Shown here: piece after piece, positions 2,745 to 61,094 of the stretch
Numbering within the stretch: the first letter of the stretch is position 1
Layout of the letters: each line of letters begins with the position of its first letter
DNA from: a virus
Lineage: Duplodnaviria > Heunggongvirae > Uroviricota > Caudoviricetes
Reading direction: 5' to 3' (one strand)
Virus record (IMG/VR): IMGVR_UViG_3300029288_000136
Length of the DNA: 64,000 nt
The notes under the pieces: generated by a model
Database searches by the model: none
What the model saw: only the letters and a program-made list of their open reading frames with translations
Told to the model about the DNA's origin: nothing
Program-made: the position numbers and the translations under genes

Positions 2745-2763
2745 ATAAGAAGAGAGGAATAGA

Positions 2764-4476: not shown

Positions 4477-4477
4477 C

Positions 4478-4585: not shown

Positions 4586-4646
4586 ATATAGATGTTTGAC
4601 TATTAAATAATAAATAAAATAATCAAATAAGATCAACACAAACAAA

Positions 4647-5957
4647 ATGACAATAATGAAGAATGGAACAATAGTAGAAGATAGAAAACTAACACAAAAA
4701 GAAAGATTCGACCTACAACTACTTGAAAGCATAAGATCAATAAGTCCAAACTGCATAGGAATAGCCAAAGGAACAAAGATAACAGAAGGAAAAGACACTG
4801 GGATGCCAGCATACAAGCTATTCGTAAAGAAGAAACTACCAATAGAAAAGATACCAACAGGAGAAATGCTTCCAAAAGTGCTTGGAACACAAGATGAAAG
4901 ACTACCAACAGACGTACAAGAACTAGGAGAGATCTATATAACATCAATGCTCAAAACCAAAAGAAGCAATAAACAGAAGATAAAGAACATAATACAAAGA
5001 ATACAAGGAATAAGCAGGACAGACAAGGCAAGACCCTTCAAGATGGGAACCAGCGGAGGATGCTGGGACACCACCGCGTTAACCAATGGGATGACCTTCA
5101 AACACATAGAATCAGGGAAGAAGGTCATATTCACCAACGGACACGGATCAGGATGCGACCTAAGAGACGAGATGCCCCTATCAACAGAGAAAAGATACCT
5201 ACAACCAGGACCAGTAGACGGAGGACAACAAGAAGGAAACGTAGTAGGGGAGAGACTAAACCTGGTAAGATACAAGGACGGGAAAGGATGGAATGACGGG
5301 ATGACGGTCATGGTATCCTCGGAAGACTACCTGGATGAGGAGTTGTATGAATTAGGCAGGGTAGTTGGAGTTGATACGCTGGTGGTCGGGGATAAGGTAT
5401 TCAAGTCAGGTAGGACGACAGGAAAGACCGAAGGAAACTGCACATCTCTCAACGCAACAATATCAGTAAACTATGGAAACTACTCCATAACACACCTTGG
5501 ATGCATACTATTCACAGGGATGAGCGCAGGAGGAGACAGCGGATCAGTGATAGTAAAGATCAGGGAAGGTAAGATATATGTGGTAGCCTACCTATTCGCA
5601 GGGAATGAATCAGTGACAGTAGCCCATGAAATACAGAACATGATGAGCATATTCGGATTAGCCCTAACACAGACAGAAGAACCAAACGATCCAATGGAGA
5701 ATACTTACACAATGAATGTGGAAATGGAAAAAGAAACAAATGAGACACCACAAACATGGACAGTAAAAGGAGTCATAACAGATAAGACAACAAAACAACC
5801 AATAAACGGTGTCAATGTAAAGATAGGAGAGATAAACTGCAACACAGGATTGGATGGATCATATGCGGTTAAAGGACTCATAAAAGGGACATATAATACG
5901 CTGTTCTCAATGAGCGGATACAAGCAGATAAACGGATCAATAGTTCTTGGAGGATAA
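4647..5957 (+). CDS. trypsin-like serine protease with C-terminal carboxypeptidase-regulatory-like beta-sandwich domain
   Basis: Has a GDSGS catalytic-serine motif (SAGGDSGSVIV) and a candidate catalytic His (TNGHGSGCD). The C-terminus TWTVKGVITDKTTKQPINGVNVKIGE... resembles a CarbopepD_reg domain. Confidence 0.5.
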   Translation: MTIMKNGTIVEDRKLTQKERFDLQLLESIRSISPNCIGIAKGTKITEGKDTGMPAYKLFVKKKLPIEKIPTGEMLPKVLGTQDERLPTDVQELGEIYITSMLKTKRSNKQKIKNIIQRIQGISRTDKARPFKMGTSGGCWDTTALTNGMTFKHIESGKKVIFTNGHGSGCDLRDEMPLSTEKRYLQPGPVDGGQQEGNVVGERLNLVRYKDGKGWNDGMTVMVSSEDYLDEELYELGRVVGVDTLVVGDKVFKSGRTTGKTEGNCTSLNATISVNYGNYSITHLGCILFTGMSAGGDSGSVIVKIREGKIYVVAYLFAGNESVTVAHEIQNMMSIFGLALTQTEEPNDPMENTYTMNVEMEKETNETPQTWTVKGVITDKTTKQPINGVNVKIGEINCNTGLDGSYAVKGLIKGTYNTLFSMSGYKQINGSIVLGG

Positions 5958-5968
5958 ATACAGAGTAA

Positions 5969-6583
5969 ATGGACAAAGAAGACATAGGAGAAGAACCGGA
6001 AGAGCAAGCACCAGAGATCCAACAAGAAGAATATAATGTGAGGAAACCAGGGAGAAAGAAAGGATCAACCAATAAAGGAGTAAGGAAAGTATTATGGGAC
6101 AATCTTCCAATGAATATACAACTGGAGATATGGAAGATGAAAACAGACGGGGCAAGCATAGCAAAGATCTGTAAATACGTCCACGACCAATACCCAAAGT
6201 ATACTGCAAGCGAGAAATCAGCAACTAAATTCTTCAACTACCGGAAAGAGATACTATCAACAGAAGTAGTAAACTCCAAGACCTACCAAGACTCAATAGT
6301 TGAAACCTTCTCAGAGATGTGCAAAGACATGAACGTAGTGAGTAAACTGCTCGTGGAAAGAGCGAAAGAAGAAGCGATAGGGGGTAAAACAGAGGATCTA
6401 ACTGATGCTGCAGGAGAATTTCTGAACTTCTTCAAAGCACACGGAGACCTCTTAGAGAAGACTGGAAGACCAGATAGCAATCTGAAACCAGTGAATACAG
6501 TACAAGAATTGAAGGACACAGTGAGTGGAATAAAGATAAAGAAGATAAACCAGGAAGTAAAAGAAGAAGAGCCGAGCATTTGA
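5969..6583 (+). CDS. charged protein with HTH-like segment (regulator or small-terminase-like, uncertain)
   Basis: 204 aa. The segment KGVRKVLWDNLPMNIQLEIWKMKTDGASIAKICKYV is HTH-like, and the termini are acidic. Confidence 0.3.
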   Translation: MDKEDIGEEPEEQAPEIQQEEYNVRKPGRKKGSTNKGVRKVLWDNLPMNIQLEIWKMKTDGASIAKICKYVHDQYPKYTASEKSATKFFNYRKEILSTEVVNSKTYQDSIVETFSEMCKDMNVVSKLLVERAKEEAIGGKTEDLTDAAGEFLNFFKAHGDLLEKTGRPDSNLKPVNTVQELKDTVSGIKIKKINQEVKEEEPSI

Positions 6584-17207: not shown

Positions 17208-18968
17208 TTACTCTTTAATTAGATTGAAGAAGGTTTGGGGGAGTAGGGATAAGTGGGATATTATCTTGAAGTTCCTGCGTTGAGGACCGAGGATGTCGTT
17301 GTAGTCCTTGATAACTCTCTCTCTCATTGAAGCGTCTGATTGAATGTAAGCAATTCCATAGATTGAGATGCCTGAGCGGTGAGCTATCTTGGATTGCTCA
17401 ATGGCTTCCTGCTTGTCTGATGCTATGCCGTCAGAAATGAAGAGGATGCGTTTTATGTTATTGGCTTTGCATCTTGTAATGGCAGTCCCAAGGGCTCGTC
17501 CAAGAGGGGTGAGTTTGTCAGCGTCAAAGCCTCCAAGCAAGGCACGGGTTTGGTCTGTGAATCGTTCTGTTCGTTCCTTTACCATGCGGATCTGATCCTT
17601 GTGTCCAAAGTATAGCATCTCGTATTTAATCTTGGTTGTGGTGAGGGCTTCACATATTATTGCTAGTGACATTATGTATTGGTTCTCGTATTGGGAGACG
17701 CTTCCTGAGTTGTCCACTAATATGTATAAGTCGGTTTTGTTTGAGATGCGTTCTTCATTGTTGAAGTATTTGTCGGAGCAGGAGATGTAGGCTTCAGGGT
17801 CGAAGTCTTCTCCTTCAGTGTCTAAGTGCTCATCCCAGCCAATGGTCCACTTCTTGAGACGCTGCTTCATGTCAAGGGTTTCGCGTTGGACTGCTCCCTT
17901 CAATGTGTTGTATCTGCCGATGTCTGAGGAATTGGAGCGGATTATTGGTGTCTTGGCTATCTTCATCTGTTGTGTGTATTGGTCGCATAGTGATTTGAAT
18001 TCTACCTTGAGTTCTTCTGTTGGGGAGGTTTCATCGGAGTCTATTTGTTGCAGGATCTTTTCGACTGCTTCAAGGCTTCCTCTTATTGATGCTTCGGATG
18101 TTTGTATCTTTTGTCCAGGAGTTGTGTTAGTATCAAGTTCTCCAGGTGCTTGGATATAGACCATGTTCAAGCCTTGGGAGTTTGGGTCGAGTTCTTGAGA
18201 GGTTGATCCATTCTCTTTCCTTTCATTGTATTGGTCTCTGAAATCGGGTTCATCTGGGAATAGTTTGGAGAACTTGAATGTGGACTCTATTGCTTGGTCT
18301 GTGGTCTCGATGTCTTGGAATTCAGGTATCAATGCTTTTAGTTGTGTTAGGAGTTCAGGTGAGAGTTTTTCATACATTGGGTTGGTGTCTCTTTCAGTGT
18401 CTTTGGATATGGAGCGGAGAGAGTCGAGGATGTAGAGTCCTGCGATTCTAACAGTTGAGAGAGAGTGCTTTAATCTTGTGTATTCCTTTGCGTTCTTCTT
18501 CAAGTAGTATTGGTCTCTGAAGCGTTGTTCTCTGTAGTAGCCTGTGTAAGTGCGAAGACTGATTTTTTCTATGCGGTAATCTTCTAAGGCATTGAATAAT
18601 TGGAAGATGAATTTGTCTTTGGCGTGTTCTTTTGGCAGTATGTCAGGGTTTATGTGGGGTGTGTGCCAGATGTGGAGTGATTCATGGAAAGTCTCAAAGC
18701 GGAAGAGTCTCCATATATTGAAGTCTTGGGTTAGATCGCCTGAAAACATTGGGAGTTGAGGAATGAGAATTGTGCCTCTGCTGTCTTTAGTAATTAGTGT
18801 GGAGAATCCTTTGTTTGTGAGTGAGGTGATTATATGAGTATTCTTGCATTTGGACCATACACGAGCCAAATGATTCAAGTGATCTACTCTTACATCATTG
18901 GTATAAGTGGTTTGAATAGATTGCTGTTGAGACATATTATCAATGTCGTCTGGAGTTGGTTGTTTCAT
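17208..18968 (-). CDS. CobT/NorD/CbbO-like protein with C-terminal von Willebrand factor A domain
   Basis: MIDAS DxSxS motif (LYILVDNSGSVS) and ILFISDGIAS in the C-terminal third. 586 aa. Partner of the MoxR ATPase 1 kb upstream. Confidence 0.6.
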   Translation of the reverse strand: MKQPTPDDIDNMSQQQSIQTTYTNDVRVDHLNHLARVWSKCKNTHIITSLTNKGFSTLITKDSRGTILIPQLPMFSGDLTQDFNIWRLFRFETFHESLHIWHTPHINPDILPKEHAKDKFIFQLFNALEDYRIEKISLRTYTGYYREQRFRDQYYLKKNAKEYTRLKHSLSTVRIAGLYILDSLRSISKDTERDTNPMYEKLSPELLTQLKALIPEFQDIETTDQAIESTFKFSKLFPDEPDFRDQYNERKENGSTSQELDPNSQGLNMVYIQAPGELDTNTTPGQKIQTSEASIRGSLEAVEKILQQIDSDETSPTEELKVEFKSLCDQYTQQMKIAKTPIIRSNSSDIGRYNTLKGAVQRETLDMKQRLKKWTIGWDEHLDTEGEDFDPEAYISCSDKYFNNEERISNKTDLYILVDNSGSVSQYENQYIMSLAIICEALTTTKIKYEMLYFGHKDQIRMVKERTERFTDQTRALLGGFDADKLTPLGRALGTAITRCKANNIKRILFISDGIASDKQEAIEQSKIAHRSGISIYGIAYIQSDASMRERVIKDYNDILGPQRRNFKIISHLSLLPQTFFNLIKE

Positions 18969-20015: not shown

Positions 20016-21035
20016 TTAGATTGTAATGTCGTCCGCTTTAACTTTTTGCTCTTCATAGCAGCCAAGGGAATGTGCAAGCGTTTTAAGGTTATCCATGTGG
20101 AAGGTTCCCCATTGTCTCATAGCATTAATCAATGTAAGATCAATGGTTTCGGTCAATGAGTAGCCGCTGTTTAGTAGGTGGGCTGCTGTGATTGATTCTC
20201 TTGTGGTGGGGCGGTATGGGTATTCGTCTGTGCTTCTAATGTTCTCGAATAGCTTCAATACCTTAAGCAAGTCATCGCGGTGTTGTGATTCTAGTGTCAG
20301 CTTTCTTTCGACTATTTTGAGTTCGGTGAAGGCTGGGGGATAGTTGTAGACTAGGCGTGCTGAGAATCGTGAGAGTATTTGTTGGGGTAGTTCCTTTGCT
20401 CCAGGGCAGTCAAGGGGATTGATTGAGGCGGTGAAAAACCAGGAGGGTTTAGCGTGTATTGTTAGTCCTTCATAGTTGAGTTCTCGTCTGTCGTCTAGGC
20501 ATTCATTTAAGCGGATTAGGACATCTGGCTCGGATTGATTGATTTCATCTAGCATTAAGATTGAGCCTTCTTCCATTGAGAGGGGGAGTGGTCCTTTTTT
20601 CCAGTTGATGTTTCCGTCCTGTAAATCCAAGCGTCCAAGTAAATGCTGTTCTCTGCAGCGTAGTGAGAGGTTTAGTGAGTGTATGTTTTGGTTGTATTTT
20701 TCTGCCATTAGTAGAATAGAGATCGTCTTGCCACAACCAGGGGGGCCAATGAGTAGGGGGTTGATTCCTTTTTCATACAAGTGGCATAGTTTTCTGAAAT
20801 TGCCTTCCCAGTCGTAGAATTTGCCTCCGCTTAGGTCTTTGAGTATCCAGATTGCTCCAGAACGTATTATGATATCCTTCTGTTTTAGTGAGTCTAGTGC
20901 AGGGTAGATGTTTTGTATGGTGAGCGGTTCTGGGAGATTTAGGGGTTTGCTCCATTCTATGAGTTCTGTGGGTGAGCCTTTCTTGTGTTGGTCCAGTATT
21001 GATACCAGTATTCCTTCTATTTGTGCTTTATCCAT
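20016..21035 (-). CDS. MoxR-family AAA+ ATPase (CobS/NorQ/CbbQ-like)
   Basis: Walker A LLIGPPGCGKT and Walker B ILMLDEINQ. AAA_5-like, 339 aa. Confidence 0.75.
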   Translation of the reverse strand: MDKAQIEGILVSILDQHKKGSPTELIEWSKPLNLPEPLTIQNIYPALDSLKQKDIIIRSGAIWILKDLSGGKFYDWEGNFRKLCHLYEKGINPLLIGPPGCGKTISILLMAEKYNQNIHSLNLSLRCREQHLLGRLDLQDGNINWKKGPLPLSMEEGSILMLDEINQSEPDVLIRLNECLDDRRELNYEGLTIHAKPSWFFTASINPLDCPGAKELPQQILSRFSARLVYNYPPAFTELKIVERKLTLESQHRDDLLKVLKLFENIRSTDEYPYRPTTRESITAAHLLNSGYSLTETIDLTLINAMRQWGTFHMDNLKTLAHSLGCYEEQKVKADDITI

Positions 21036-32614: not shown

Positions 32615-33067
32615 CTACAAAAGTCCAATCTTATCCAACTGTTGTCTATTTAATCTTGCGGTTGCTTTAGTATTATTGAAAGCCTTCTGTAATTTCTTCA
32701 ATACCAGGATGGATGAATGAAGGGGTCTTTTTCCATTAAACTTAAAATCATTACAAATAGATCTGGAATGACTGCTAATTGGAAATTTTGGATTCTTAAG
32801 AAGAAGCAAGTATAAGAGAGAACCGCACAATAAGTTCTTACCACCTGAAAACTTTATCGACCTACACTCACCAGATGTTAATAGATTAAAAAGATCAGAA
32901 CGATAAGAAGAATATTTAGACGGAAGGAAGTTATCAAGGTAAGTATTAACAAGAGCAGTCCTTCTACGATTACTTAAGGCTACCATATATCCTTTCTTAC
33001 GCTCAGGATTATTACGACACCACTCCTTAAGATAAGCATTCAATTCTTCCCTAGACTTAGGAGCCAT
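32615..33067 (-). CDS. basic hypothetical protein
   Basis: 150 aa, K/R-rich. Confidence 0.35.
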   Translation of the reverse strand: MAPKSREELNAYLKEWCRNNPERKKGYMVALSNRRRTALVNTYLDNFLPSKYSSYRSDLFNLLTSGECRSIKFSGGKNLLCGSLLYLLLLKNPKFPISSHSRSICNDFKFNGKRPLHSSILVLKKLQKAFNNTKATARLNRQQLDKIGLL

Positions 33068-33568
33068 AATATTAGATTTAGAAACTAAAGTATAAATAGA
33101 TAAGCAGTATTTATAGTTGAAAGAGTATGATAATATTAGAGGAATCCTGCAAAGCCTCGTGTCGGTTATAACATTGGTAGGTTATAAAATTGGGTCACTG
33201 GCTAGTTCCTTGTGTTCATCTAGTCCAGTGATCCTCATATTAGAATCAAGCATATATAAAATCAATCATATCTGTTTGTTTTTTCAATAAGGGATTCAAG
33301 CCTTAGAAGTTTGAAATCAATAGTCCTCTGGATATCTTTGAATACGTTGCGATCTGGATTGATAGCGCATAATATCGTGGTGCTGATTCACGAAATGCAC
33401 GAACTAGGGATAAAGCCAGATTTTAAAAATATATCATTATAATGTACTATTTTTTATAAAAACATATTGATTTATTAACCCTTGTGTGCTATAATATATT
33501 TGTTTGATACCCGCTATCGTTACTGTAACAGTGATGATAGGCTTAGATTACCGTTACATCTGTATATA

Positions 33569-33902
33569 ATGGCTTCTAGTGACAAAGTTGCTATATTTAT
33601 TGATTCGGGCTATTTTAACAAAGCCTTAGAGGAATTTGCCGAAGAGGTAAATGGTAGGAGGAAGTTACCTAGGATAGATTTTGGTAAAATCGGATCTGTC
33701 TTAGCAGAAATAGTAAACGCTGATTTATTTAGGGTATATTTTTATGATTGCCGCCCATTTCAAAGCAGCCCGCCAACACCCGAAGAAAGCACTAAATTTG
33801 CTTTAAATGACCGATTTCTCAAAGCACTAACTCGTATTCCTCGTTTTGTTGTTCGTGAAGGAAGACTTAATCGTTATACCGTAGTATGCAAGAAATGTAA
33901 TA
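33569..33902 (+). pseudogene. NYN/LabA-like nuclease domain gene, N-terminal fragment, interrupted by island
   Basis: MASSDKVAIFIDSGYF... is the NYN N-terminal hallmark. Sequence character changes to GC-rich after ...VVCKKCN. The C-terminal half resumes at 38787. Confidence 0.55.
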
Positions 33903-34129
33903 GGGCAGGGTGCCGGTTGTCTTCGGGTATAATATTTACTGCATGCTGGGCCGTAAGACCGGGAAGTTGCTTGCCCATAATGGGTTGTATGTTAAGAGTT
34001 TAAGCGTCGGATGGGCCGAATTAAAGAGGGATTTCTCCGGGTACGCAGTCAACGGGACTGCCTTGAATGCATCGCTGGATACGGGTAAGTCTTCCGTACA
34101 ATAGAAGTTTTTGTGGGTATTCGTCCTCA

Positions 34130-34640
34130 GGCAGTTATAGTCGAGGGCAAAAGTTGTCCACAGACATGCCCTTAAGGGCAACTAGCCTTTTTTTAAAAAT
34201 CAGATTACGTGCCCTCGAATAGATTCGCGGCCGATAGCAGTCTAAATGCATTTAAGGCATTTGCCTTTTTGCACAATTTATGGCCACGATTATGTCCAAA
34301 TCAGCGTTTTTAAGCTCTTTTGTATCATTATCCGGTTTGCCTTAGGCTGTGGGTTCTTTCCGCCTTGCAGCAGCCGAGGTCATATTATAGTGCAGGAGAT
34401 AACTTTCCTGCGCCCGTCGAGCGCATGCCTGTCAGGCGGAAAATTTGTGCCTAGAGGCACATGCCCCTTGAGGGCAAAGTCCCTTTATCTCCCTGCACTT
34501 GTTTCAAGGGCCAAAATCTTAGGGGTATTCTGGTCCTCGACTATAGTTCTTCAGGTCTTTTGCCTGCCTATTTTACAACAGTTTTCCGGCATTTAGGGAT
34601 TGAATAATCGTGGAGGGATAACTTTTCCCTCCTTAAGGCA
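34130..34640. other. GC-rich non-coding region with multiple perfect palindromes, bounded by 11-bp inverted repeat
   Basis: TATAGTCGAGG at 34137 and CCTCGACTATA at 34533. Internal palindromes GCCCTTAAGGGC, GTGCCTAGAGGCAC and GAGGGATAACTTTTCCCTC. No credible ORF. Confidence 0.45.
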
Positions 34641-34930
34641 TTCCCTGCGAGCATCCCGAGTTTTTCGTGAAAGACCTTTGTTCTCCCGCGCTGGTTTCCA
34701 GTAGGCGGACTTGCCTGGAAGGCGTTCCTCTTTAAAGGCGCGAAAATTTAATCCTTGACTAAGTGTTTTCCCTGTCTGCTCGGGGTCTGCTTCGAACACT
34801 TTTTTTCTATGCCGATGAGCCGCATATTTTCCAGGGAACCTACAGAAAAAAATTTGTTAGACGCAACATATCTTTTATTATAAATATATTCCAGTAAACA
34901 TGATATAAGGACATAGTCTTATATAGTAAC

Positions 34931-35377
34931 GTGACATTACTTTATTTTGCCTATGGCGCGAATATGAACCACAAGCACATGAAAGACGCGTGCTCTCAGA
35001 GCAGGTTCTTGAAGAGGGCTTTTCTGGAGGATCATAAGATAATATACGACGGGTACTCGGATTACATGAGAAGAAGAGCAAGGGCCAATGTCATCAGCTC
35101 TGAGGGCAGTGTCGTGTGGGGCGGCCTGTATGAGATAAGCGAGACGGACCTTGTATCGCTGGACGTATCGGAGTACGCGCCTAACTCATTCGACCGGAAG
35201 ACAACCGTCGTCAAAGACGAGGACGGGAAGACATATGAGGTCATCGTCTACCGCAGGGAAAAAAGGGAGTTGTGCGCGCCTTCTACGGAGTACAGGCAGA
35301 CCATAATACAGGGAGCAAAAGACTGCAACCTCCCCCAGGGATATATAAGGGGGATAAGTTATAGAGTAAGCGGATGA
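34931..35377 (+). CDS. gamma-glutamyl cyclotransferase / AIG2-like protein
   Basis: N-terminal LLYFAYGANMN hallmark (YFAYGSNM of the GGCT/AIG2 family). Confidence 0.55.
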   Translation: MTLLYFAYGANMNHKHMKDACSQSRFLKRAFLEDHKIIYDGYSDYMRRRARANVISSEGSVVWGGLYEISETDLVSLDVSEYAPNSFDRKTTVVKDEDGKTYEVIVYRREKRELCAPSTEYRQTIIQGAKDCNLPQGYIRGISYRVSG

Positions 35378-35391
35378 TTATCAAAATCTGA

Positions 35392-35829
35392 TTACATGTA
35401 TTTAGACTGGCTTTTAGTCTCCCGGGCAGTTGGCTCTTCCTCTGCAGGCACCGGTTCTTCTACCTGGACATCATCGGCCGGTTCGTCTACAGGGTCGTCT
35501 TCCAGGTATTCATCCAGCCGGTAGAGCCAGCAGCATTTGCCGCATTCAAGTTCCAGTTCTCCCGCGCAGTTGCCGTTTGTCCCTTCCTGCATCACTATTT
35601 CCCCGTCTCTCACATATGCTGTTATCTTGTTCTGGCATTCGGGGTTCTCACAGGTGAAAGACACTTTTTCCGCCTCGCACACAAGTTCCGGTTTATAGAC
35701 CATGTTCTCATCCTCCGATAGATCTTCGTTTAGTATCGCTCTTTCTGCGCTCGTGTAGCTTCCATATCTCAAGACAAGATATAGAAGGTACGCAACGCCA
35801 ACCAGGAAAAATAAGCTTCCCAAGTCCAT
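35392..35829 (-). CDS. membrane-anchored Cys-rich acidic protein
   Basis: N-terminal TM helix, CxxC pairs, acidic tail. Downstream of the flotillin gene. Confidence 0.4.
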   Translation of the reverse strand: MDLGSLFFLVGVAYLLYLVLRYGSYTSAERAILNEDLSEDENMVYKPELVCEAEKVSFTCENPECQNKITAYVRDGEIVMQEGTNGNCAGELELECGKCCWLYRLDEYLEDDPVDEPADDVQVEEPVPAEEEPTARETKSQSKYM

Positions 35830-35833
35830 TAAA

Positions 35834-37210
35834 TCATTCCTTCTTCTTTGTTTCGTGCTTTATCTCGTGCCTGCGCGTTATGGGCTCTACTCCGACAGCT
35901 TCGAATATCTTCGGCAGAGCCGCTGTTCCCTGCATCACGGTATTCAGGATGGATCCGCCAAGTCCCATGTCTGACGTATCCCCTGTCTGGACTATCGTTA
36001 TCTTGTCTCCGATGTTCTTCAGGGGCTCTGCTATTCTCTCGGCTATCAAAGGAAGCGTCTCTATCTTCATTATCTCAAGGCCGCTCTGGTTCAATTCCTT
36101 GTATGCTTCCGCCTTCTTCTGGACTCCTTCCGCTTCGGCTAGAAGCTTTTGTTTCTGTCCCTCCGCTTCGGCCAGTAATTTTGCCTTTATTGCTTCCGCT
36201 TCCCCGATCCCTTCCAGCTTCTTCTTCTCGGACTCTCCCGCCGCAATAGCGATCGTCTTGACTTTCTCGGCCTCTCCTTCAAGCTGCTGTATTTCCTTGT
36301 TTCGTTCGGATATCTCTACTTGTTTCTGCTTCTGTATTAGTTCGATCTTCATCTGCTCTTCTTTCAGTTTCTGTGTTTGTATGGCAGTCTCTATATCCTT
36401 TGCCTTGTCGGCCATGGCCTGCTGCGTGAATGTCTCCTGGTTGTATAGCGCCATCTTTATCTGTTTTTCTTTTTCGTATTCTGCTATCTTTGTCTGCGCT
36501 ATGTTCTCCTGCTCGCTTGCTTCCTGGTTCGCCTTGGCGGTCGCCTTCCGGGACTCGCTCTTCGCGTTGGCTTCGGCTATCTCCGCTGCTTTTATCTTTT
36601 CGGCAAGCTCCTTTGCGTAGAGGGACTCTATGTACCCTCTGCCGGTCTCTTTCTTTGTTGACGATGAATCGCTGATGTCCTTTATCGTGAAGGATACTAT
36701 CGAGAGGCCCATCTTCTCCAGGTCGTCTTTTGCGTTCTCAAGGACCCTTTTGTTGAAGCTTTCCCGGTCCTGTATCAATTCCTCGACTGTCATGTTGGCG
36801 CATATCGCCCTTATGTGGCCCTCCATTGTCTCTTCTATCTTCTGCATTATCCTTTCGGTCTCAAAGCCCAGGAATGATTTTGATACGTTGGCGTATCCTT
36901 CTTCGGTGTCCTGCAACTGTAATTGTGCGACTGCTTCCACGTCGACGGGAACGATAAGCTGAGTCTGCACGTTTTCCTTTACTATTGTGACGGTCATAAG
37001 CTGTTTTGTTATGGACCACGCTTCTTCCAGGACAGGGAATATGAGCGTTGCTCCTCCCGACACGAATCTTGTTCCTTTCCTTCCGGAGATCACCATAAGC
37101 TTTGACGGGGGTACTTTGATATAGTTCCTGCTCATAACATACGCTCCCCCCATGACCGCTATTGCTCCCCCGCCGACTATTATCGGCAGCACGAATCCGT
37201 CGATGTTCAT
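35834..37210 (-). CDS. SPFH/band-7 flotillin-like protein
   Basis: N-terminal TM helix plus SPFH-like domain, then a long EA-rich coiled coil (AEAEG repeats). 4-nt overlap with the upstream NfeD gene. Confidence 0.65.
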   Translation of the reverse strand: MNIDGFVLPIIVGGGAIAVMGGAYVMSRNYIKVPPSKLMVISGRKGTRFVSGGATLIFPVLEEAWSITKQLMTVTIVKENVQTQLIVPVDVEAVAQLQLQDTEEGYANVSKSFLGFETERIMQKIEETMEGHIRAICANMTVEELIQDRESFNKRVLENAKDDLEKMGLSIVSFTIKDISDSSSTKKETGRGYIESLYAKELAEKIKAAEIAEANAKSESRKATAKANQEASEQENIAQTKIAEYEKEKQIKMALYNQETFTQQAMADKAKDIETAIQTQKLKEEQMKIELIQKQKQVEISERNKEIQQLEGEAEKVKTIAIAAGESEKKKLEGIGEAEAIKAKLLAEAEGQKQKLLAEAEGVQKKAEAYKELNQSGLEIMKIETLPLIAERIAEPLKNIGDKITIVQTGDTSDMGLGGSILNTVMQGTAALPKIFEAVGVEPITRRHEIKHETKKKE

Positions 37211-37788
37211 TTTTCAGCCTCTCTTGATGCTTTTTTTACTTTCAACATGTCGCCGCATAGTCCGGCGACTATTACATTCGTTCCCTTGGGCAGGCTTTCG
37301 TCCGAGACCGCCAGTAAAGACTTATGGCTCCCGTCTACGAAAAGAACTTCCCCCTTGTCGCCCGCGCCCTTTATCTCCACTGTCACTACGCCCTCTTTTC
37401 CTATGAAATCCCTCAGCTTGCGTATAGAGCTTGGCGAATTGGAGAACACCTTGGACATTAGATACGTTGATGAGACGGTTATCGCTAAAGAGATAAAAAG
37501 CGACGCAGGAACCAGGACAAAAGGACTCATTTCAGGATACGCGAGCAGGAGATATACCCCGGCCCCTCCGAAAGTCGTGCAGAACGCGCCCATCGCGAAT
37601 GTGCCAAAGCCGTGGAAAGACACTCCGTCGAATGCATCCCCCAGGAGGGATATGCCATCCAACGCGTTGCCCACGCCTTCCAATACCCCTTCCAGGGCGT
37701 CGCCTAATATGTCGGCAAAGAAGCTGACAACTGTGATCAATAGCCCCATCAAGAATATTATTCCGAAAACTAGTAGAATATCTATCAT
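37207..37788 (-). CDS. NfeD-like membrane protein
   Basis: Multi-TM N-terminus plus a C-terminal OB-like segment (GKEGVVTVEIKGAGDKGEVLFVDGSHKSLLAVSDESLPKGTNVIV). Classic operon partner of SPFH proteins. Confidence 0.5.
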   Translation of the reverse strand: MIDILLVFGIIFLMGLLITVVSFFADILGDALEGVLEGVGNALDGISLLGDAFDGVSFHGFGTFAMGAFCTTFGGAGVYLLLAYPEMSPFVLVPASLFISLAITVSSTYLMSKVFSNSPSSIRKLRDFIGKEGVVTVEIKGAGDKGEVLFVDGSHKSLLAVSDESLPKGTNVIVAGLCGDMLKVKKASREAEK

Positions 37789-37945
37789 TTTTATTGAATA
37801 ATATTTAGATTATGTTATATTTATATAAATATTCTGTATAAAACTTTGATTCTTTCCTGAATTTGTAGATTTGTGGGAAGTGAGCGAATGTAGTGCCTAA
37901 CTTTCCGGACCAAAAAAAATATTTAAATAATCAGAAAACACATAC

Positions 37946-38458
37946 ATGTATGTGATGAAAGCCAGCAAACATCGCATGCTTTCTTTTATGATGGTCGCCG
38001 CGTCTACCGCTGCCGGCGCGAACTCCGTAATGGGCCCTCTGACAGGCATTTGGGGAGTGGCAATGATATTCTTATTCCTCCCGGTATGGCTTCTTGAGGC
38101 CGTAATCATTTACTTCGCAGCAAGGAAGATATGTTCCTACAGTATAAGCCTCAAGCGCGCATTTATCACGTCTTTTGCAGCCAACACCGCCTCGACAATA
38201 GGCGGCCTTATGGCAATGCAAATTTGCTACTTTATTACCTTCCTACTGTTCCATAACTATACCCTGAGCATATTTTACGAGATCGTCCCCGTCTTTGCCC
38301 TGGGTTTTGTGATAACGGTCATCATAGAAACGGTCGTGGTGCATATCTCAGTCAAGGATAAAGGCAGAGGCTGCAAGCCTTTTTATATTTCCATGCTGAT
38401 GAATCTGGCGTCATATGCCCTGCTTGCAGCGCTTGCAGTCATCAGATACAGTCGTTGA
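37946..38458 (+). CDS. integral membrane protein
   Basis: Four or five hydrophobic helices. GC-richer codon usage like the island. Confidence 0.4.
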   Translation: MYVMKASKHRMLSFMMVAASTAAGANSVMGPLTGIWGVAMIFLFLPVWLLEAVIIYFAARKICSYSISLKRAFITSFAANTASTIGGLMAMQICYFITFLLFHNYTLSIFYEIVPVFALGFVITVIIETVVVHISVKDKGRGCKPFYISMLMNLASYALLAALAVIRYSR

Positions 38459-38783
38459 CGTTCTTAAGCCACATTAGCAGCGTCGACTGAACCGTTCCGG
38501 ATGCCTCGGCGCTTATCCTCTCCGCGTCGTATCCGAACGTTATTAGCAGGTTCTCGAGAGCCCGGACCAATAGTTCGTAGTACTTGTCCGGATCGTATTC
38601 CCCCCGTATCTGCTTCGGCGTGTAGCGCCGCTCGGGCTTCTTCGCGCAGGCATCTGTTATCACGTACTCGACCGATTCCCCCGGCCGGGTCTTCAGACCG
38701 TAGCGTTCCAGCTTTTCCATCACGACCTTTTGCGCCGCCGCGCTCTTGTATTCATTCCGCTCCCTTGTCACGCTCTTGAACAT
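38442..38783 (-). pseudogene. C-terminal (thumb) fragment of an archaeal-type family-B DNA polymerase
   Basis: ...GESVEYVITD...EYDPDKYYELLVRALENLLITFGYDAERI...QSTLLMWLKNVN aligns with the conserved PolB C-terminus (G..I.Y.V...YDP.K..YDAEYYIENQVLPAV.RIL..FGY...Q..L..WL). It has no N-terminal 600+ aa and ends at the island junction. Confidence 0.65.
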
Positions 38784-38786
38784 ACA

Positions 38787-39062
38787 ATTGACTACAAGCA
38801 GAAAGGCGTAGATATACTACTATCTATGGATTTAGTAAAGTTGGTTTCTAAGGAAGAAATAAACAAAGCAGTACTAATAACTGGTGACAGTGACTTTGTG
38901 CCTGCGGTTCGAATGGCAAAGGATGATACGATCCAAATTTATTTGATACATGGTACTAGAATCCATAATGGAAAAACTCTTCCACTAGCTCATGATGAAC
39001 TTTATTCGTTATGTGACGAACGCATACCTATAACAAAGGAGCTACTTAAAAGGCTGACCTAA
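38787..39062 (+). pseudogene. NYN/LabA-like domain, C-terminal fragment
   Basis: IDYKQKGVDILLSMDLVKL...AVLITGDSDFVPAVRMA matches the NYN C-terminal core (KGVD...SGDSDF.P). No own start codon, since the tracked ORF start lies antisense to the PolB fragment. Confidence 0.55.
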
Positions 39063-39225
39063 TCATCTCTTTCTGCTAATAAACTCCCTCGTCTGCTAAT
39101 AAAGTCGCTGGTTTTCATGACTAAATTAGCAAAGCCAGTATAGATATGTTAGGATAAGTATAAAACAGATAGAAGAATCTAAGGGGATACCAAGAAGAAT
39201 CCAGAGAAGTATTAACCTGGAATAC

Positions 39226-39459
39226 CTACTTGAAGTCGAAGGCTTCGATAACTTCATCCGGTGTTGGATTATATATGTCTCCACACCCAATTGTTCCATC
39301 ATATTCATTTTCTTTGTCAACTACAAGAGCGCGTTTAGGCATGGTTCTCTTCTTGTATCCACAAAGGGGACATGCTTCTCCCGGCTTCCTGCTATCAATT
39401 CGTTCTTTCCTTTTAAGCACCTTATCCAAGTATGCTCCGATCTTATCCAATGTGTTCAT
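39226..39459 (-). CDS. zinc-ribbon protein
   Basis: CPLCGYKK...GCGD. Confidence 0.35.
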   Translation of the reverse strand: MNTLDKIGAYLDKVLKRKERIDSRKPGEACPLCGYKKRTMPKRALVVDKENEYDGTIGCGDIYNPTPDEVIEAFDFK

Positions 39460-39646
39460 TTTATGTGTATAAGTTATGAGAGAAATTGGAGCCAGTCAGG
39501 ATTTGCACCTGACAACCTGGGGACATTGTACTGTGTCAATCCCATACTGTAACAGCAGCGGCACTACAATCTTTCTCCGCCCTTGACTCCATTAATATAT
39601 GAGAGTATTATGTAGAATTGATGAAAAAAGTTAATGAAAAAAAGAG

Positions 39647-39919
39647 TTAGAGCTTATTTCTCTTCTCCATATCATTCCATAACTCAGTCATCATCAAGTA
39701 GAAACCAGCTATAGTTATCCCCCAAAAGAATGCAGTAATAAAGAGTTCAGGTAATGCTTCTCCATAGTTGTTAATTGCAACCCATGATTTTTTAGAGCTG
39801 TCCATCCAGCTTGTAAACCATACAAGCTGTAGTAGGGAGGCAAGACCCGTGCTCCATATAAGAGATATTAACTTGACATACCTTCTAATAATGTGTTTAT
39901 CCATTTTTTTAGAGCACAT
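39647..39919 (-). CDS. small membrane protein
   Basis: 90 aa, W-rich hydrophobic helices. Confidence 0.3.
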   Translation of the reverse strand: MCSKKMDKHIIRRYVKLISLIWSTGLASLLQLVWFTSWMDSSKKSWVAINNYGEALPELFITAFFWGITIAGFYLMMTELWNDMEKRNKL

Positions 39920-55083: not shown

Positions 55084-55211
55084 CAAACATAGACCTACAA
55101 ATCAAAACAAGCCTCACAACCTCAAACCACATCATTGATCCAATAACATCAAAGACCCCACACCATCTCCAAATAGATAAACCCAAATACAATTACCACC
55201 CACAATGCTAA
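55077..55211 (+). CDS. upstream mini-ORF 2, paralogue of the terL N-terminus (44 aa)
   Basis: MLTNIDLQIKTSLTTSNHIIDPITSKTPHHLQIDKPKYNYHPQC. Its first 11 residues are nearly identical to the TerL start, and its stop overlaps the terL ATG. Confidence 0.35.
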   Translation: MLTNIDLQIKTSLTTSNHIIDPITSKTPHHLQIDKPKYNYHPQC

Positions 55212-56749
55212 CCAATATCGACTTACAGATCAAGACCGGACTAACAACCTCAGACTTCATAATAAAAGGAGCCACAGACTTCAAATACTGGGCCGAAACC
55301 CTATACGACTACACAATCAAACCATACCACATCGAATGGGCCAACAACCTAACACAACAAACACGCTCCTCAACCATCGCAGCAAGAGGACTAGGCAAAT
55401 CACTCATACTAGGAACCCTAATGCCCATCTGGCTAAGCTTCTACGACTACACACCACAGACAACAAACCTAAAAGGAATAGTAATAGCAGCCCAAAACCT
55501 AAGCCAAAGCACTAAACTAATGATGAACATCCGAAACCACATCAACAAAACAGAACTAACACAACTACTCATACCAAAAACAGGAGACTACACCTGGACC
55601 AAAAAAGAAATAAACACCACAACCGACTGGAAAATAAACGTACTACCATACAGCGACAACGCAAGAGGACCACACGTCCCATACCTCCTAATGGAAGAAG
55701 CAGGTCTATTCACCGACCTAGAAATATACACAGACGTATTCCTACCAATGATCCAAAGAGCCAACGGCAACGCAATGTTATTAGGGACCCCAAAAACAGC
55801 ATACGACCTGCTAGCAAGAAGCCAAATACCCGGAAGCGGATACCAGATAAGCAAATACCCCCTAATCAAAAACGGAGAATGCATCCTACCAGAAATATTC
55901 CCCCCAGAACGAATACAACAAATACGAAAAGACATCGGAGAACTAAGCTTCGCAAGAGAATACCTACTCGAAATAGTAGGAGAAGGACGAGCAATAAAAA
56001 CACAACACATAATAGACAGCCTAGACCCAACAGAAACCTTCACCACACTAGGAACCGAAACAGGAGAATACTACATAGGAGCAGACCTAGCACTATCCCC
56101 CACAGGAGACTACACAGTACTAACAGTCATAGAACGCTACAATGGACGCTACCACATCCGCAAAATAGAAGAATACCGCGGCATGAGCTTCGACAACCAA
56201 ATAAACACCATAGCCACCCTATACAAACAATACAACCCCGTCACCCTACTAATAGACGAAAGCAACTTCGGAGGAATAGTAACCCAAAAACTACAAACAC
56301 AATACAACATACCAGCCCAAAGCATCAAATTCCTCCCAACCACCCGCAACACCATGCTCATAAGACTAATAAACACCTTCACATCAAACAAAATAACCAT
56401 ACCACGAAACCCCAACTGCCCCACCACCCTCACACTAACAGACCACCTACTAGACCAAATAAGCAGCCTACACAGCGACAAAACACGCAGCGGCCAAGAC
56501 ACCTACAAAGCATCAACAAAACACGATGATTCTTTAATGTCCCTAGCACTAGCCCTACACGCAGCAGGAGACACAGACAACTACCAAGAAACAGCCATAC
56601 TAACAGCCAAACCACCAACAAACCAAACACAACAAAACAAGATAATACAAGACAACTACTATGAAACAATACAAAAAATGAGACAAAAACCAATAAAAGA
56701 AACCAAAGAATACGGATCAGCCTTCAACAAATGGCTACCACACAACTAA
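55205..56749 (+). CDS. terL: terminase large subunit
   Basis: Deviant Walker A AARGLGKS, Walker B LLMEEAG. C-terminal nuclease-domain acidic motifs are IGADLALSP, LLIDESNFGG and KHDDSLMSLALALH. 514 aa, immediately upstream of the portal candidate. Confidence 0.8.
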   Translation: MLTNIDLQIKTGLTTSDFIIKGATDFKYWAETLYDYTIKPYHIEWANNLTQQTRSSTIAARGLGKSLILGTLMPIWLSFYDYTPQTTNLKGIVIAAQNLSQSTKLMMNIRNHINKTELTQLLIPKTGDYTWTKKEINTTTDWKINVLPYSDNARGPHVPYLLMEEAGLFTDLEIYTDVFLPMIQRANGNAMLLGTPKTAYDLLARSQIPGSGYQISKYPLIKNGECILPEIFPPERIQQIRKDIGELSFAREYLLEIVGEGRAIKTQHIIDSLDPTETFTTLGTETGEYYIGADLALSPTGDYTVLTVIERYNGRYHIRKIEEYRGMSFDNQINTIATLYKQYNPVTLLIDESNFGGIVTQKLQTQYNIPAQSIKFLPTTRNTMLIRLINTFTSNKITIPRNPNCPTTLTLTDHLLDQISSLHSDKTRSGQDTYKASTKHDDSLMSLALALHAAGDTDNYQETAILTAKPPTNQTQQNKIIQDNYYETIQKMRQKPIKETKEYGSAFNKWLPHN

Positions 56750-57474: not shown

Positions 57475-58893
57475 ATGACAACACCAAATCAAAAAACAAA
57501 AACCCAAAGAAGATCACAACCAATATCAACACACACACAAAACATACAAAACACCGGATTCCAAGGAATAATACCCACACTGCAAAAATTCATGTACGGA
57601 GAACAAAAAACAGACAACACCCCCGAACCGGAAATAGGAAACAAAGGATACAGCACCGGACTAACACTAAACAGGGCAAGCAAAGCAGACCTGGAAGCAC
57701 TATACATAAGCGACCCAGTAATATTCAACGGAATAAACACCTACTACAAAACAATCCTCTCAAACCCCCCAACCCTGACAAACGGATCGGAAAAAGACCA
57801 AAAAAAACTAGACCAATTCAGCAAACAAATAAAACTACAAAGAAGCATAATACCAAGCATAACCCAACACAGCCTCATATACGGAACCGCGTGGAATGAA
57901 AAAATCTACAACAAAGCCCCCAGAGGAAACATCCTACACAAAATACTCGGAATACCCACAAGAGACCCCAAACTAATGGACTTCCTAAGACACCAAAACA
58001 CCAACTACATAAGATTCAACGAAGTAGGAGAACCGGAAGGATACTGCCAATACATAGCTGACGGAATACACTACGAAGGAACCGACACCATAATAAACGG
58101 AACAAACAGCCTAAAAGCCATACCCTTCACCCCAAACAAAATAATGTGGACCAACTACATAGCAGTAGGAGACACCTATGAAGGAATAGGCCTGGTCGAA
58201 CCAATACTAAACAGCTCACTAGACAAAAACAACGCCCAAAAAGGATTCAGCGCATACATCTACCGACTAGGACACGGACTACTAGGCATCAAAGCAGGAA
58301 ACGAAAGATTCATACCCTCAACCGACATGATACACAAAGCCATACAGATCTTCAGCAACATAAACACCGAAACAGTAGTCTCCTACCCCTACTACCTACA
58401 ACCCGAAATGATCGAACCCAAAAGAGGAATAGAACGACTAAGAGAACAAGTAGACTACTTCATAGACCAACAAATAGCCGGAATCGGTTTGCCAGCATGC
58501 TTAGTAACAGGCCAAGGAACTTCTATGAACCGCAGCATCCTGGACAAAATGATGATGCTATTCTACCAAAGCCTCACCATGATCCAAAACAACATATCTA
58601 TAAGCATAGAAGACAACCTATCCCAAGAACTAATGGACATATACGGACTAGACAACCCCCCAAGACTAGAATGGCCCGACATAAACATAGAAAGCATGGA
58701 CAGCAAAGCAAACAGGCTAAGCACATACGCAAAAGCAGGCCTGCTAGGAGCCACCCCAATGCTGCAGACATACATACGACACTCAGAACACCTACCCCAA
58801 GAAGGAGACAACACGCCCAACACGCCAGACACCCAATCAAACGAAGACCAGGAGAACCACAAATCAAAGCTGGATTCAATCCTCGACTTCTAA
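57475..58893 (+). CDS. portal protein candidate
   Basis: 472-aa ORF directly after terL in head-module order. Size and position only, no motif checked. Confidence 0.5.
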   Translation: MTTPNQKTKTQRRSQPISTHTQNIQNTGFQGIIPTLQKFMYGEQKTDNTPEPEIGNKGYSTGLTLNRASKADLEALYISDPVIFNGINTYYKTILSNPPTLTNGSEKDQKKLDQFSKQIKLQRSIIPSITQHSLIYGTAWNEKIYNKAPRGNILHKILGIPTRDPKLMDFLRHQNTNYIRFNEVGEPEGYCQYIADGIHYEGTDTIINGTNSLKAIPFTPNKIMWTNYIAVGDTYEGIGLVEPILNSSLDKNNAQKGFSAYIYRLGHGLLGIKAGNERFIPSTDMIHKAIQIFSNINTETVVSYPYYLQPEMIEPKRGIERLREQVDYFIDQQIAGIGLPACLVTGQGTSMNRSILDKMMMLFYQSLTMIQNNISISIEDNLSQELMDIYGLDNPPRLEWPDINIESMDSKANRLSTYAKAGLLGATPMLQTYIRHSEHLPQEGDNTPNTPDTQSNEDQENHKSKLDSILDF

Positions 58894-58907
58894 ACCACAT
58901 AAAAAAG

Positions 58908-61094
58908 ATGCCAAACCCCCAAACTAACACCAAACCACCACATGAAAACAATGAGAAAATAGCGGAGTTGGTTCACTCCAACTCCGAAATAGGCTCGTCA
59001 GGATCCTCACCAACATCTTCCCCCGATTCCTCCGTCTCGGAAGCATCCTCGACTACGGAACCTCGCTCAGACTCGGCTTCATATCCTTCCTCGTTACAGG
59101 GATTGGTTCACGCCAATCCCACGTTACCTACGGAGTCGGTCTCTAAGACCTCCTCGACGTTACAATTACAAGATGAATCATCTGTGAATGTTACATCAGA
59201 CGTTACATTACGAGAACAAATAGCCAATCAATCCCATACTCAATGGTCTAAATGGATGGAATATCTATTCAATGAATCAAATCAATTAGAAGATGGAACA
59301 GTAAGCATCCCACCAACTAAAGTAAGCAGATGGAAGAGACAAATAGTTACAGATTACAAAGACTTAACTATAGAAGAGCAGAATAGTGACTTAAAAGAAG
59401 CAGATATCTACATACAAATCTTTAATTCATACTTACATAATTCCAAAGAGACCTTAGATAATGCAGAGTTAGTTCAATCCAACTCTGAAATGAATGAATC
59501 AAGTGAAAAACCACTGAATAAAGAAGAAAAGAACGCTCCGACCAACTGCGAACTAATGAAGCCATTCACCCCAATGCAGATGACAAACAAACAAATGAAC
59601 ATAGAAGACATCAATTACTACTTCAACGACAAATACTCAGAGAAATACATGCTATTCAACCAAACAAACAAAGGAACACACATATTCCTACATAAAGGAA
59701 GCAGATGGAACGGTTCAACAGTAAAGATATACAACGACAACAAAGAAGAGATAACTGACAGATACCCAGACATAGTATACCAAGCACCTGAACTGACAGA
59801 TTACTCCATAATAGTGGAAGGAATAATAGAAAACAATGGAACACTAGACTCTGGAACTCTAAATGGAACACCAAAAGGAACAGTAAACTCTGGAACACAG
59901 AATGAAACACTAAATGAAACACTAAATGGAACACTACAACTATACGACATACTATACTACGACCAACCGATGAACAGATCACAGCTGATAGAAAGACTAA
60001 GAGTATTATTCATGAATATAAAAGACACTGAAAACATAAAGAAGAACAGACCAATACCTGAGAAAAACATCAAACACATGATCAAACTAGCTAAAAAGAT
60101 GGGAACAGGCATAATAAGACACCTAGACTCAGCCTACCATATCAATGAACATGGAAACGACAAAGGATTCCAACTCTCAGACACTTCTGCAGCCTCCTCC
60201 ACTAACACTGATACAATATATAATAATATACATACAATAGGCAACAACACTTCTACAATACTAAAAGAGATATCAGACAAATTACCACAAACATTCATAT
60301 CAGAATTAAGCAAAGCAAAAGACAACTGGATACCATTCACACTATCAAAGCATTACAGAGGACACAAAGAAGGAAATAATATAATAATGAATAGCGTACA
60401 CCAGGATCTAAGATTCAACATCCCCAATTCAACAAACGTACAAGCAATAACGATACTAACACCAGGAAACAATGAAAATCAGGACCTACTAACAATAGGG
60501 GAAGCAGCTAGAAATGGAAAGATAAGATTCCTGGTAAAAGAACCAGAACCAATACAAAGCACAAAACCAACATACTACCAAGAGAATAACCCAGGAGCCA
60601 CAACAGTACCTGGATTCAGCATAGTAGTAGCAGAAGGCCAATACACGCTCCTGGAATCAACAGATACCAAGCTACATATCGAATTAAACTGCATAGAGTC
60701 CTCATCCAGTGAAGGAGAGCATACAGTAAGAAAAAACAAGGAAGTCATAGATAAAGCGCTGGAAGCAGGGATCAAAGTAGACGAAATAGACTGGAGTACT
60801 TTAAAAGACATATCAGGGGTGTGGAGCCTAAGCGAAGCGCATATGACAGACACTACAATACTACTTATGAGGCTTCTAAACAGGGGAACAGCAAGATTAC
60901 TTGAAAAAGTAGACAAAACATGGATGGAACAAGTCAAAAAAGGACACATACACAAGACCGGAGTAAACAAGGAAAAACTATACAAAATAGCCCTTATGAG
61001 CGAAGAAGGATACTACAGACCAGAGATAGCCAAAGAGATAGGAACAAACAAGGACACAGTATACAGATGGCAGAAAGCATTAGGATACTACTAA
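58908..61094 (+). CDS. large head-module protein with Ser-rich linker and C-terminal HTH
   Basis: Start set at the first ATG after the portal stop, because the tracked ORF start at 58497 lies in an alternative frame of portal. GC-rich Ser/Thr/Pro linker (SSGSSPTSSPDSSVSEASSTTEP). C-terminal EIAKEIGTNKDTVYRWQKALGY is HTH-like. Confidence 0.45.
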   Translation: MPNPQTNTKPPHENNEKIAELVHSNSEIGSSGSSPTSSPDSSVSEASSTTEPRSDSASYPSSLQGLVHANPTLPTESVSKTSSTLQLQDESSVNVTSDVTLREQIANQSHTQWSKWMEYLFNESNQLEDGTVSIPPTKVSRWKRQIVTDYKDLTIEEQNSDLKEADIYIQIFNSYLHNSKETLDNAELVQSNSEMNESSEKPLNKEEKNAPTNCELMKPFTPMQMTNKQMNIEDINYYFNDKYSEKYMLFNQTNKGTHIFLHKGSRWNGSTVKIYNDNKEEITDRYPDIVYQAPELTDYSIIVEGIIENNGTLDSGTLNGTPKGTVNSGTQNETLNETLNGTLQLYDILYYDQPMNRSQLIERLRVLFMNIKDTENIKKNRPIPEKNIKHMIKLAKKMGTGIIRHLDSAYHINEHGNDKGFQLSDTSAASSTNTDTIYNNIHTIGNNTSTILKEISDKLPQTFISELSKAKDNWIPFTLSKHYRGHKEGNNIIMNSVHQDLRFNIPNSTNVQAITILTPGNNENQDLLTIGEAARNGKIRFLVKEPEPIQSTKPTYYQENNPGATTVPGFSIVVAEGQYTLLESTDTKLHIELNCIESSSSEGEHTVRKNKEVIDKALEAGIKVDEIDWSTLKDISGVWSLSEAHMTDTTILLMRLLNRGTARLLEKVDKTWMEQVKKGHIHKTGVNKEKLYKIALMSEEGYYRPEIAKEIGTNKDTVYRWQKALGYY

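Follow-up and report, generated by a model that had tools for sequence, protein, structure and literature searches.

Probable capture of an archaeal chromosome fragment inside a nuclease gene of a tailed archaeal virus

Introduction

How does one viral gene come to lie in two pieces, 4.9 kb apart, on either side of DNA that looks cellular? The question is raised by a 64,000-nucleotide stretch of a tailed-virus genome (IMG/VR record IMGVR_UViG_3300029288_000136; Caudoviricetes), here called the window, in which the two halves of a gene for a NYN/LabA-like nuclease flank an island of ~4.88 kb (33903–38785). An earlier note on this DNA, made from the sequence alone, had read the arrangement as the clean scar left by an insertion of foreign DNA, probably from the host, into a viral gene. 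Our analysis suggests that a tailed archaeal virus captured a random fragment of an archaeal chromosome by illegitimate end-joining, inactivating the nuclease gene, a reading to which we give a probability of roughly 80%.

Results

A nuclease gene in two pieces

The two nuclease pieces have the same orientation and bracket the island:

33569–33901, plus strand: NYN/LabA-like nuclease, N-terminal half (residues 1–111), carrying the first conserved aspartate, D12; guanine-plus-cytosine (GC) content ~38%, virus-like
38787–39062, plus strand: NYN C-terminal half (residues ~112–202 and stop; coding to 39059, 91 residues), with the motifs QKGVD and GDSDFVP and the aspartates D120, D145 and D147

The end of the N-terminal half, previously given as 33902, is at 33901. 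When the pieces are joined, the resulting 202-residue protein gives a single continuous match to the Pfam NYN family (PF01936; profile positions 1–124 of 145, E = 1.4e-10, 42.3 bits, Pfam cut-off 24.2 bits), and the C-terminal half matches the same family by itself (E = 2.1e-8). A database search returned 933 homologues. The best intact one, an archaeal protein of 201 residues (P0001), is 58–61% identical over 99% of the joined sequence and collinear with it: its residues 1–105 align to 33566–33901 (54% identity) and residues 111–198 to 38793–39056 (66% identity), leaving at most about three codons unaccounted for at the join. The break point falls in a loop 3′ of a CxxC motif, and the length of this loop differs among homologues. 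The earlier note had taken the same-strand halves for parts of one gene and had named a failure to align to one NYN domain as grounds for giving up the idea; the halves do align, and on these alignments they read as adjacent parts of one gene.

An alignment of 11 sequences shows no variation at four aspartates, D12, D120, D145 and D147, which match the conserved acidic positions of a PIN-like active site. The frame of the N-terminal half runs on for 33 out-of-frame codons into the island, to a stop at 34001–34003, and the C-terminal half has no start codon of its own ahead of D120. Since D12 is on one piece and the other three aspartates are on the start-less piece, the gene is almost certainly inactive, judging from its sequence. 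No second NYN copy was found in the window. The viral gene therefore shares the domain and the conserved acidic residues of other NYN/LabA-like (PF01936) nucleases, but is split and presumably dead.

As to the origin of the nuclease gene itself, the protein has a PHROG family that occurs in phages (phrog_5783). Its closest relatives (42–58% identity; L002, L026 and L028) all lie in archaeal cellular contexts, where the cellular homologues neighbour genes for fibrillarin, Trm56, PGK or an HD-domain protein. The viral gene was probably taken up from a host at an earlier date and has since shifted to viral base composition.

An island of foreign composition

The island has a GC content of 48.2%, compared with 38.1% for the remaining window (z = 5.7), and the highest value of any other 4.9-kb segment is 41.6%. 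Its tetranucleotide usage correlates with that of the rest of the virus at 0.43, whereas random viral chunks of the same size have a mean correlation of 0.89 and a minimum of 0.62. With the donor-like loci described below (L016 and L022), the tetranucleotide correlation of the island is 0.77–0.89, and its GC content agrees with that of the donor loci (48–51%) and not with that of the virus (~38%). That the intervening DNA is GC-richer than the virus, as the earlier note had it, is borne out by these GC values.

Syntenic loci on archaeal contigs

A homology search with the flotillin encoded in the island, among 5.8 billion proteins, led to a 94% identical protein on an 8.2-kb Logan contig (L016), with cluster mates on the JGI contigs L022 (12.7 kb) and L023; a search for the exact flotillin protein led back to the source contig only. 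The donor-like contigs, which are metagenomic, share one gene order, in the opposite orientation to the window: a family-B DNA polymerase (PolB), a secreted protein, NfeD, flotillin, a Cys-rich transmembrane (TM) protein and, on the opposite strand, a gamma-glutamyl cyclotransferase (GGCT). L022 continues with a 182-residue gene (g182), a 75-residue gene (g75), a rhodanese (178 residues), a response regulator/PAS/TrmB protein and a PAS-rich protein. PolB is full length on L016 (724 residues) and on a further contig, L031, while the L022 copy is cut by the contig end. The earlier note had proposed BLAST of the island as the way to a donor; nucleotide identity between the island and L016, L022, L023 and L031 is 80–82% over 34824–37835 and 73–75% over the PolB end, and similarity between the window and these contigs is confined to the island.

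Aligned against these loci, the island and its borders resolve as follows:

33899–33909, no strand: left junction interval; NYN homology extends to 33898–33901, rhodanese homology begins at 33907–33913
33907–34104, plus strand: rhodanese-type sulfurtransferase, 3′ fragment, from about residues 107–159 onward of the 178-residue L022 protein
34105–34930, no strand: non-coding spacer with no open reading frame (ORF) of note; donor-like loci have other genes (g182, g75) here
34931–35377, plus strand: GGCT (GGCT/AIG2-like), intact; gene callers place the start at 34964
35392–35829, minus strand: small membrane protein (TM helix at the N-terminus, Cys-rich region resembling a zinc ribbon); 67% amino-acid identity to L022
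35834–37210, minus strand: flotillin (SPFH/Band 7 and Flot domains, by Pfam), 458 residues, intact
37207–37788, minus strand: NfeD-like membrane protein, intact; 81% amino-acid identity to L022
37789–37945, no strand: divergent intergenic region, AT-rich (30% GC); each flanking gene is preceded by TATA-box-like motifs
37946–38458, plus strand: multi-TM protein, 170 residues, in a variable slot beside PolB
38442–38783, minus strand: PolB, 3′ fragment, last ~113 of ~724 codons, located by tblastn with the L022 PolB
38777–38796, no strand: right junction interval; PolB homology extends to 38777–38783, NYN homology begins at 38787–38797

Both border genes are cut mid-sequence and both read inwards, making the island a closed segment that runs from the middle of rhodanese to late in PolB. 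The rhodanese fragment is 75% identical over 53 residues to the L022 rhodanese (tblastn, E = 3e-23) and 72–74% identical by blastn to L022, L023 and L031; it lacks the 5′ 60% of the gene, and its frame is open to a stop close to the natural C-terminus. The PolB fragment, 71% identical to the L022 PolB over 110 residues (E = 7e-42), is likewise open to a stop close to its natural C-terminus. The PolB end had been recognised in the earlier note; the rhodanese end had been missed, the ~1 kb between 33903 and 34930 having been taken as empty.

As PolB and rhodanese are full length in cellular contigs and truncated in the island, transfer ran from cell to virus. Island ends that both fall within genes also speak for breakage at random. 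Two other arrangements were considered and rejected. Virus-to-cell transfer is ruled out by full-length PolB and rhodanese being present only in cellular loci, and prophage flanks are ruled out by the topology, the truncated host genes being directed into the closed 4.9-kb segment that they bound. On this synteny, the source of the island is an archaeal chromosome. The earlier wording, foreign and probably host-derived, can accordingly be sharpened to an archaeal chromosomal origin as far as 'foreign' is concerned; that the donor was also the host we infer, indirectly, from the archaeal affiliation of the donor loci and of all close NYN homologues.

The lineage of the source can be approached through its polymerase. 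The donor-type PolB is 55–56% identical to proteins from metagenome-assembled genomes (MAGs) labelled Candidatus Altiarchaeota, and one such protein (56% identity) is encoded among genes for CTP synthase, an HtrA-type protease, an aminotransferase and glycogen phosphorylase. A scan of GTDB genomes with the flotillin gave only bacterial matches of 26–33% identity, by a method that needs shared exact 8-mers and is hence blind to the donor.

The donor-type PolB (L016, 737–2911) reads 'HGIVDS' at motif C, which is normally 'YGDTDS', the form present in the virus-like contig L017. With one motif-C aspartate replaced, it may be a catalytically altered PolB paralogue.

The donor-like loci also differ from one another. 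Compared with L022 (3–8273) and L016, contig L031 (252–6109) keeps PolB, GGCT, g182, rhodanese and the response regulator and is without the NfeD, flotillin and Cys-rich genes, which marks the stretch from PolB to rhodanese as a variable region in the source lineage; the flotillin cassette appears, from these contigs, to be an indel in the cellular genomes themselves. The gene adjoining PolB varies as well, encoding a secreted protein of 592 residues in L016 and 374 residues in L022, as against 170 residues in the window.

A virus or plasmid as donor

A second reading has the island coming not from the host chromosome but from a plasmid, a co-infecting virus or some other mobile element that carried PolB, NfeD and flotillin, in which case virus–virus recombination would have produced it. 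Such gene combinations do exist: virus-like contigs (L017–L020) carry NfeD and flotillin a few genes downstream of a phage-type PolB, and flotillin of this type is the third-closest relative of the island's (43% identity). However, the island's close relatives, at 80–82% DNA identity, adjoin rhodanese, response regulator/PAS and PAS-rich proteins, which are typical chromosomal content. The donor-type PolB is only 28% identical to the PolB of L017, and its relatives are found in plain chromosomal context in the Altiarchaeota MAG. We therefore regard a mobile donor as unlikely and retain a chromosomal one.

Contigs L017–L020 are of some interest in themselves. They have 51% GC and many small same-strand ORFs, with lengths of 66–74 kb among those shown and up to 113 kb listed, and they also encode DenV-like and eRF1-like proteins. 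In L017 (5269–11383), a phage-type PolB of 766 residues is followed by five or six small genes, NfeD and flotillin. They may represent an independent viral acquisition of the SPFH–NfeD pair.

Cargo of the island

The cargo described in the earlier note, namely a GGCT/AIG2 protein, a Cys-rich membrane protein, a flotillin–NfeD operon, a multi-TM protein and a PolB 3′ fragment, is correct in each item, with the proviso that the Pfam match of NfeD is weak (E = 4.7e-4, 20.7 bits, curated cut-off 29.1 bits). NCBI names this protein 'NfeD family protein', and its counterpart in L017 has an unflagged Pfam NfeD match. Flotillin, in comparison, matches both Band_7 (E = 6e-20, 72.4 bits) and Flot (E = 2e-10, 41.4 bits) above their cut-offs; it is 93–94% identical at the amino-acid level to the L016 and L022 proteins, with a ratio of nonsynonymous to synonymous substitution rates (dN/dS) of 0.03–0.05. 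The NfeD stop overlaps the flotillin start by 4 nt, and for this reason we read the two genes as an operon. Wherever flotillin is present (L016, L022 and L023), the gene for the Cys-rich TM protein lies directly downstream of it, and this protein has no Pfam or PHROG family match.

GGCT is supported by Pfam matches to AIG2_2 (E = 1.3e-13) and GGACT (E = 4e-12), belongs to phrog_2520 and has 89% amino-acid identity to L022. For the 170-residue multi-TM protein, no homologue was detected. In a three-taxon test that cannot separate evolution before capture from evolution after it, the window branch has dN/dS values of 0.03–0.19 for the four conserved genes that are intact; these genes have been under purifying selection before capture, after it or both. 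PADLOC found no defence system in the cargo, matching the PolB fragment only to the tail of an intein-PolB model, and blastn of the island against GenBank phages gave no match.

Regulatory regions seem to have travelled with the genes. The AT-rich region at 37789–37945 may act as a promoter, judging from its motifs. In the left-hand spacer, only 34779–34930 aligns to the donor loci (L016 from 34779; L022, L023 and L031 from 34884), and this part is the region upstream of GGCT, with an AT-rich, TATA-like stretch at 34873–34888. Since the AT-rich stretches between genes, with their TATA-like motifs, were acquired together with the coding sequences, expression of the cargo in infected cells is plausible on sequence grounds. 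Neither g182 nor g75 was found when both were sought in the 34105–34930 spacer by tblastn and tblastx. The repeats in the spacer are only short and scattered. Within 34105–34830 it contains palindromes such as TGCCCTTAAGGGCA at 34167–34180, with a diverged second copy at 34463–34477.

Junctions without the marks of a mobile element

The island might, alternatively, be a self-mobile element (a transposon, a casposon-like PolB element, an integrative element, an intron or an intein) that targeted NYN. The insertion is discrete and cost almost no target sequence, a PolB-related ORF lies at one end (PolB is a casposon gene), and the 0.8-kb spacer folds better than dinucleotide shuffles do (z ~ −5 on both strands, 20 shuffles). 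The junctions and the gene content, however, lack what such an element should bring. In a repeat search over 33000–39800, no direct or inverted repeat paired the two junctions, so that terminal inverted repeats are absent, and alignments of the junctions against the donor proxies gave no target-site duplication, a signature that the earlier note had thought worth looking for there. Scans of the island ORFs with Pfam, PHROGs and PADLOC gave no transposase, Cas1, integrase or reverse transcriptase; Rfam, run over 33000–39500 at E <= 1, matched no intron or other RNA family, and there is no tRNA. Moreover, the PolB ORF amounts to the final 16% of its gene, whose full-length counterparts in related archaea are chromosomal, and the other end of the island is a gene fragment too. 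Taken together, these observations make a self-mobile element very improbable.

Three specific candidates of this kind were rejected outright. An intein is ruled out, as no reading frame runs through the island; a group I or group II intron is ruled out by the Rfam result. A casposon (PolB with Cas1) would share with the island a PolB-related end in an archaeal insertion, but the island has no Cas1, terminal inverted repeats or target duplication, and of PolB, a chromosomal gene, it retains just 113 codons.

The absence of a target-site duplication and of terminal repeats points to illegitimate recombination rather than transposition or site-specific integration. The earlier description of a clean insertion scar inside a viral gene is upheld by the near-complete NYN gene, with no more than about three codons lost, by the foreign composition of the island and by the syntenic cellular locus.

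The viral contig and its assemblies

The window is part of a ~85-kb tailed-virus contig with structural and packaging genes, which include:

84–6583: tail and baseplate proteins
55205–56749: large terminase
57475–58893: Mu-like portal

The source contig is present in ENA (k141_3129407, 84,899 bp), JGI/NCBI (84,939 bp) and Logan assemblies. In metagenomic data, an assembler could have stitched 4.9 kb of a co-occurring archaeon into a viral contig, and the copies in the databases, all identical, probably go back to a single dataset. NCBI, furthermore, places the contig (proteins MFA5132832–MFA5132838) in a MAG labelled 'Candidatus Paceibacterota bacterium', a sign of imperfect downstream handling. 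Such a chimera, however, requires two false joins, one leaving the virus and one re-entering it, both at a single codon of one gene. Viral flanks and island have no repeat in common that could mislead a k=141 graph, and the JGI/NCBI, ENA MEGAHIT and Logan pipelines agree on an identical junction-spanning ORF and gene order. We consider an assembly artefact highly unlikely and proceed with the island as a genuine part of the viral genome.

The contig encodes terminase, portal and tail proteins, and its NYN gene and island have archaeal relatives only; the Paceibacterota label is therefore almost certainly a binning error, and the contig looks like the genome of an archaeal virus. A tRNA scan of the whole window found none, leaving no tRNA-type attachment site, and no integrase was seen in the window. 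Scans of IMG/VR with the joined NYN, its 150-residue left neighbour, a 375-residue phosphatase-like gene and the terminase as queries returned no relatives of the virus, and a metagenome scan with NYN gave distant matches only; a shared split arrangement in related viruses, which the earlier note had named as speaking against its idea, was accordingly not encountered.

Other genes in the window encode a MoxR-type ATPase and its VWA partner, a Cas4-like nuclease and a DNA-ligase-domain protein. The MoxR/AAA_5 ATPase and the VWA-domain protein occupy 17208–18968 and 20016–21035, ~1 kb apart, a pairing that is better known from cellular genomes. The ligase-domain protein (58497–61094; 865 residues) has an ATP-dependent DNA ligase domain and, at its C-terminus, a helix-turn-helix of the HTH_23 type; such a virus-encoded ligase could participate in end-joining events of the kind proposed here.

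Discussion

A model for the capture

The simplest sequence of events begins with a double-strand break inside the NYN nuclease gene of the ~85-kb archaeal virus. The break would have been repaired by ligation of a random, linear ~4.88-kb fragment of archaeal chromosome, most likely from the cell in which the virus was replicating, which would make the donor the virus's host. Repair would have proceeded by illegitimate recombination, either end-joining or a microhomology-type event, and would have needed no machinery specialised for mobility. Less likely, the replicating genome switched templates twice. The fragment would have brought in two dead gene ends and five whole genes (GGCT, the NfeD–flotillin–Cys-rich operon and the multi-TM gene), along with their intergenic regions. 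We favour repair of this kind as the probable mechanism because the end points are random, almost no target was lost and no mobility signature is present. The capture is presumably recent, since the NYN halves and the rhodanese and PolB fragments have no internal stops and the GC content of the island has not ameliorated.

Several points weigh against this reading, or against parts of it. The nearest loci are only 80–82% identical to the island, and the true donor is unsampled; its placement near Altiarchaeota is loose and weakly indicated, with PolB at only 55–56% identity. Two stretches, 34105–34778 and 37946–38458, have no counterpart in any donor-like locus. Both occupy slots that also differ among the donor-like contigs, for which reason a single contiguous capture from an unsampled relative would be the simplest reading of them. 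No island-free relative of the virus came out of the scans, and the state before insertion is modelled on a cellular homologue of 58% identity. Microhomology at the junctions is not resolvable without the true donor and an empty site. Recency has open frames and GC content as its whole basis, and the identical database copies apparently represent one dataset put through several assemblers, not several samples.

Comparison with known systems

Capture of a random fragment is here a clear example of a known process and not a new mechanism; what is unusual is that the insertion is untrimmed, that it sits inside a viral gene and that its source locus is identifiable. Like phage morons and other host-derived cassettes, the island is a block of foreign composition that brings its own regulatory regions into a tailed-virus genome which is coherent elsewhere, and GGCT is already recognised as a 'moron/auxiliary' family (phrog_2520). 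Classical morons, however, occupy intergenic positions and have been pared down to the gene that is of use, whereas the island interrupts a gene, keeps two dead ends and 0.8 kb of non-coding DNA, and is carried by an archaeal virus. Specialised transduction (lambda dgal, imprecise prophage excision) also carries a contiguous piece of host chromosome, but there the DNA adjoins the attachment site and replaces viral DNA; both junctions of the island are in one viral gene, with almost no loss.

The Methanothermobacter wolfeii prophage psiM100 contains a host-like fragment, 'IFa', that is reported to be absent from phage psiM2. Both it and the present virus are archaeal tailed viruses with a few kilobases of cell-like DNA; here, in addition, one can identify the locus of origin, both border genes that were truncated and the viral gene that was disrupted.

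NfeD–flotillin (nfeD-floA) operons are well described in bacteria, for example in Bacillus subtilis and Staphylococcus aureus (PMC4928834, PMC11222466). The island shares with them an NfeD-like gene upstream of, and overlapping, a flotillin gene with SPFH and Flot domains. It differs in being an archaeal version, in having a conserved third gene (TM and Cys-rich) and in being virus-borne.

Implications

Host-to-virus gene transfer is usually inferred late, from single genes that have been trimmed and ameliorated. In the present virus, the capture seems to have been caught early: the broken host genes are still in place, their locus of origin can be recognised and the interrupted viral gene shows no decay. 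This early, untrimmed state supports capture of a random chromosome fragment rather than the arrival of a dedicated mobile element. The island also links an uncultured ~85-kb virus to an archaeal lineage whose PolB is nearest that of Altiarchaeota, and it flags a MAG contig as mis-binned.

The finding raises the question whether flotillin–NfeD cassettes are of use to archaeal viruses. It is possible, though on balance doubtful, that the island is a working acquisition in which the virus expresses GGCT and an archaeal membrane-scaffold cassette (NfeD, flotillin and the Cys-rich TM protein) to remodel or stabilise the host membrane while it infects the cell. Archaeal viruses may also have recruited SPFH cassettes repeatedly, given that the unrelated virus-like contigs L017–L020 have an NfeD–flotillin pair of their own near a viral PolB. 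If this were true, flotillin would rank as a new class of auxiliary gene in archaeal viruses, with the acquisition step itself on view in the window.

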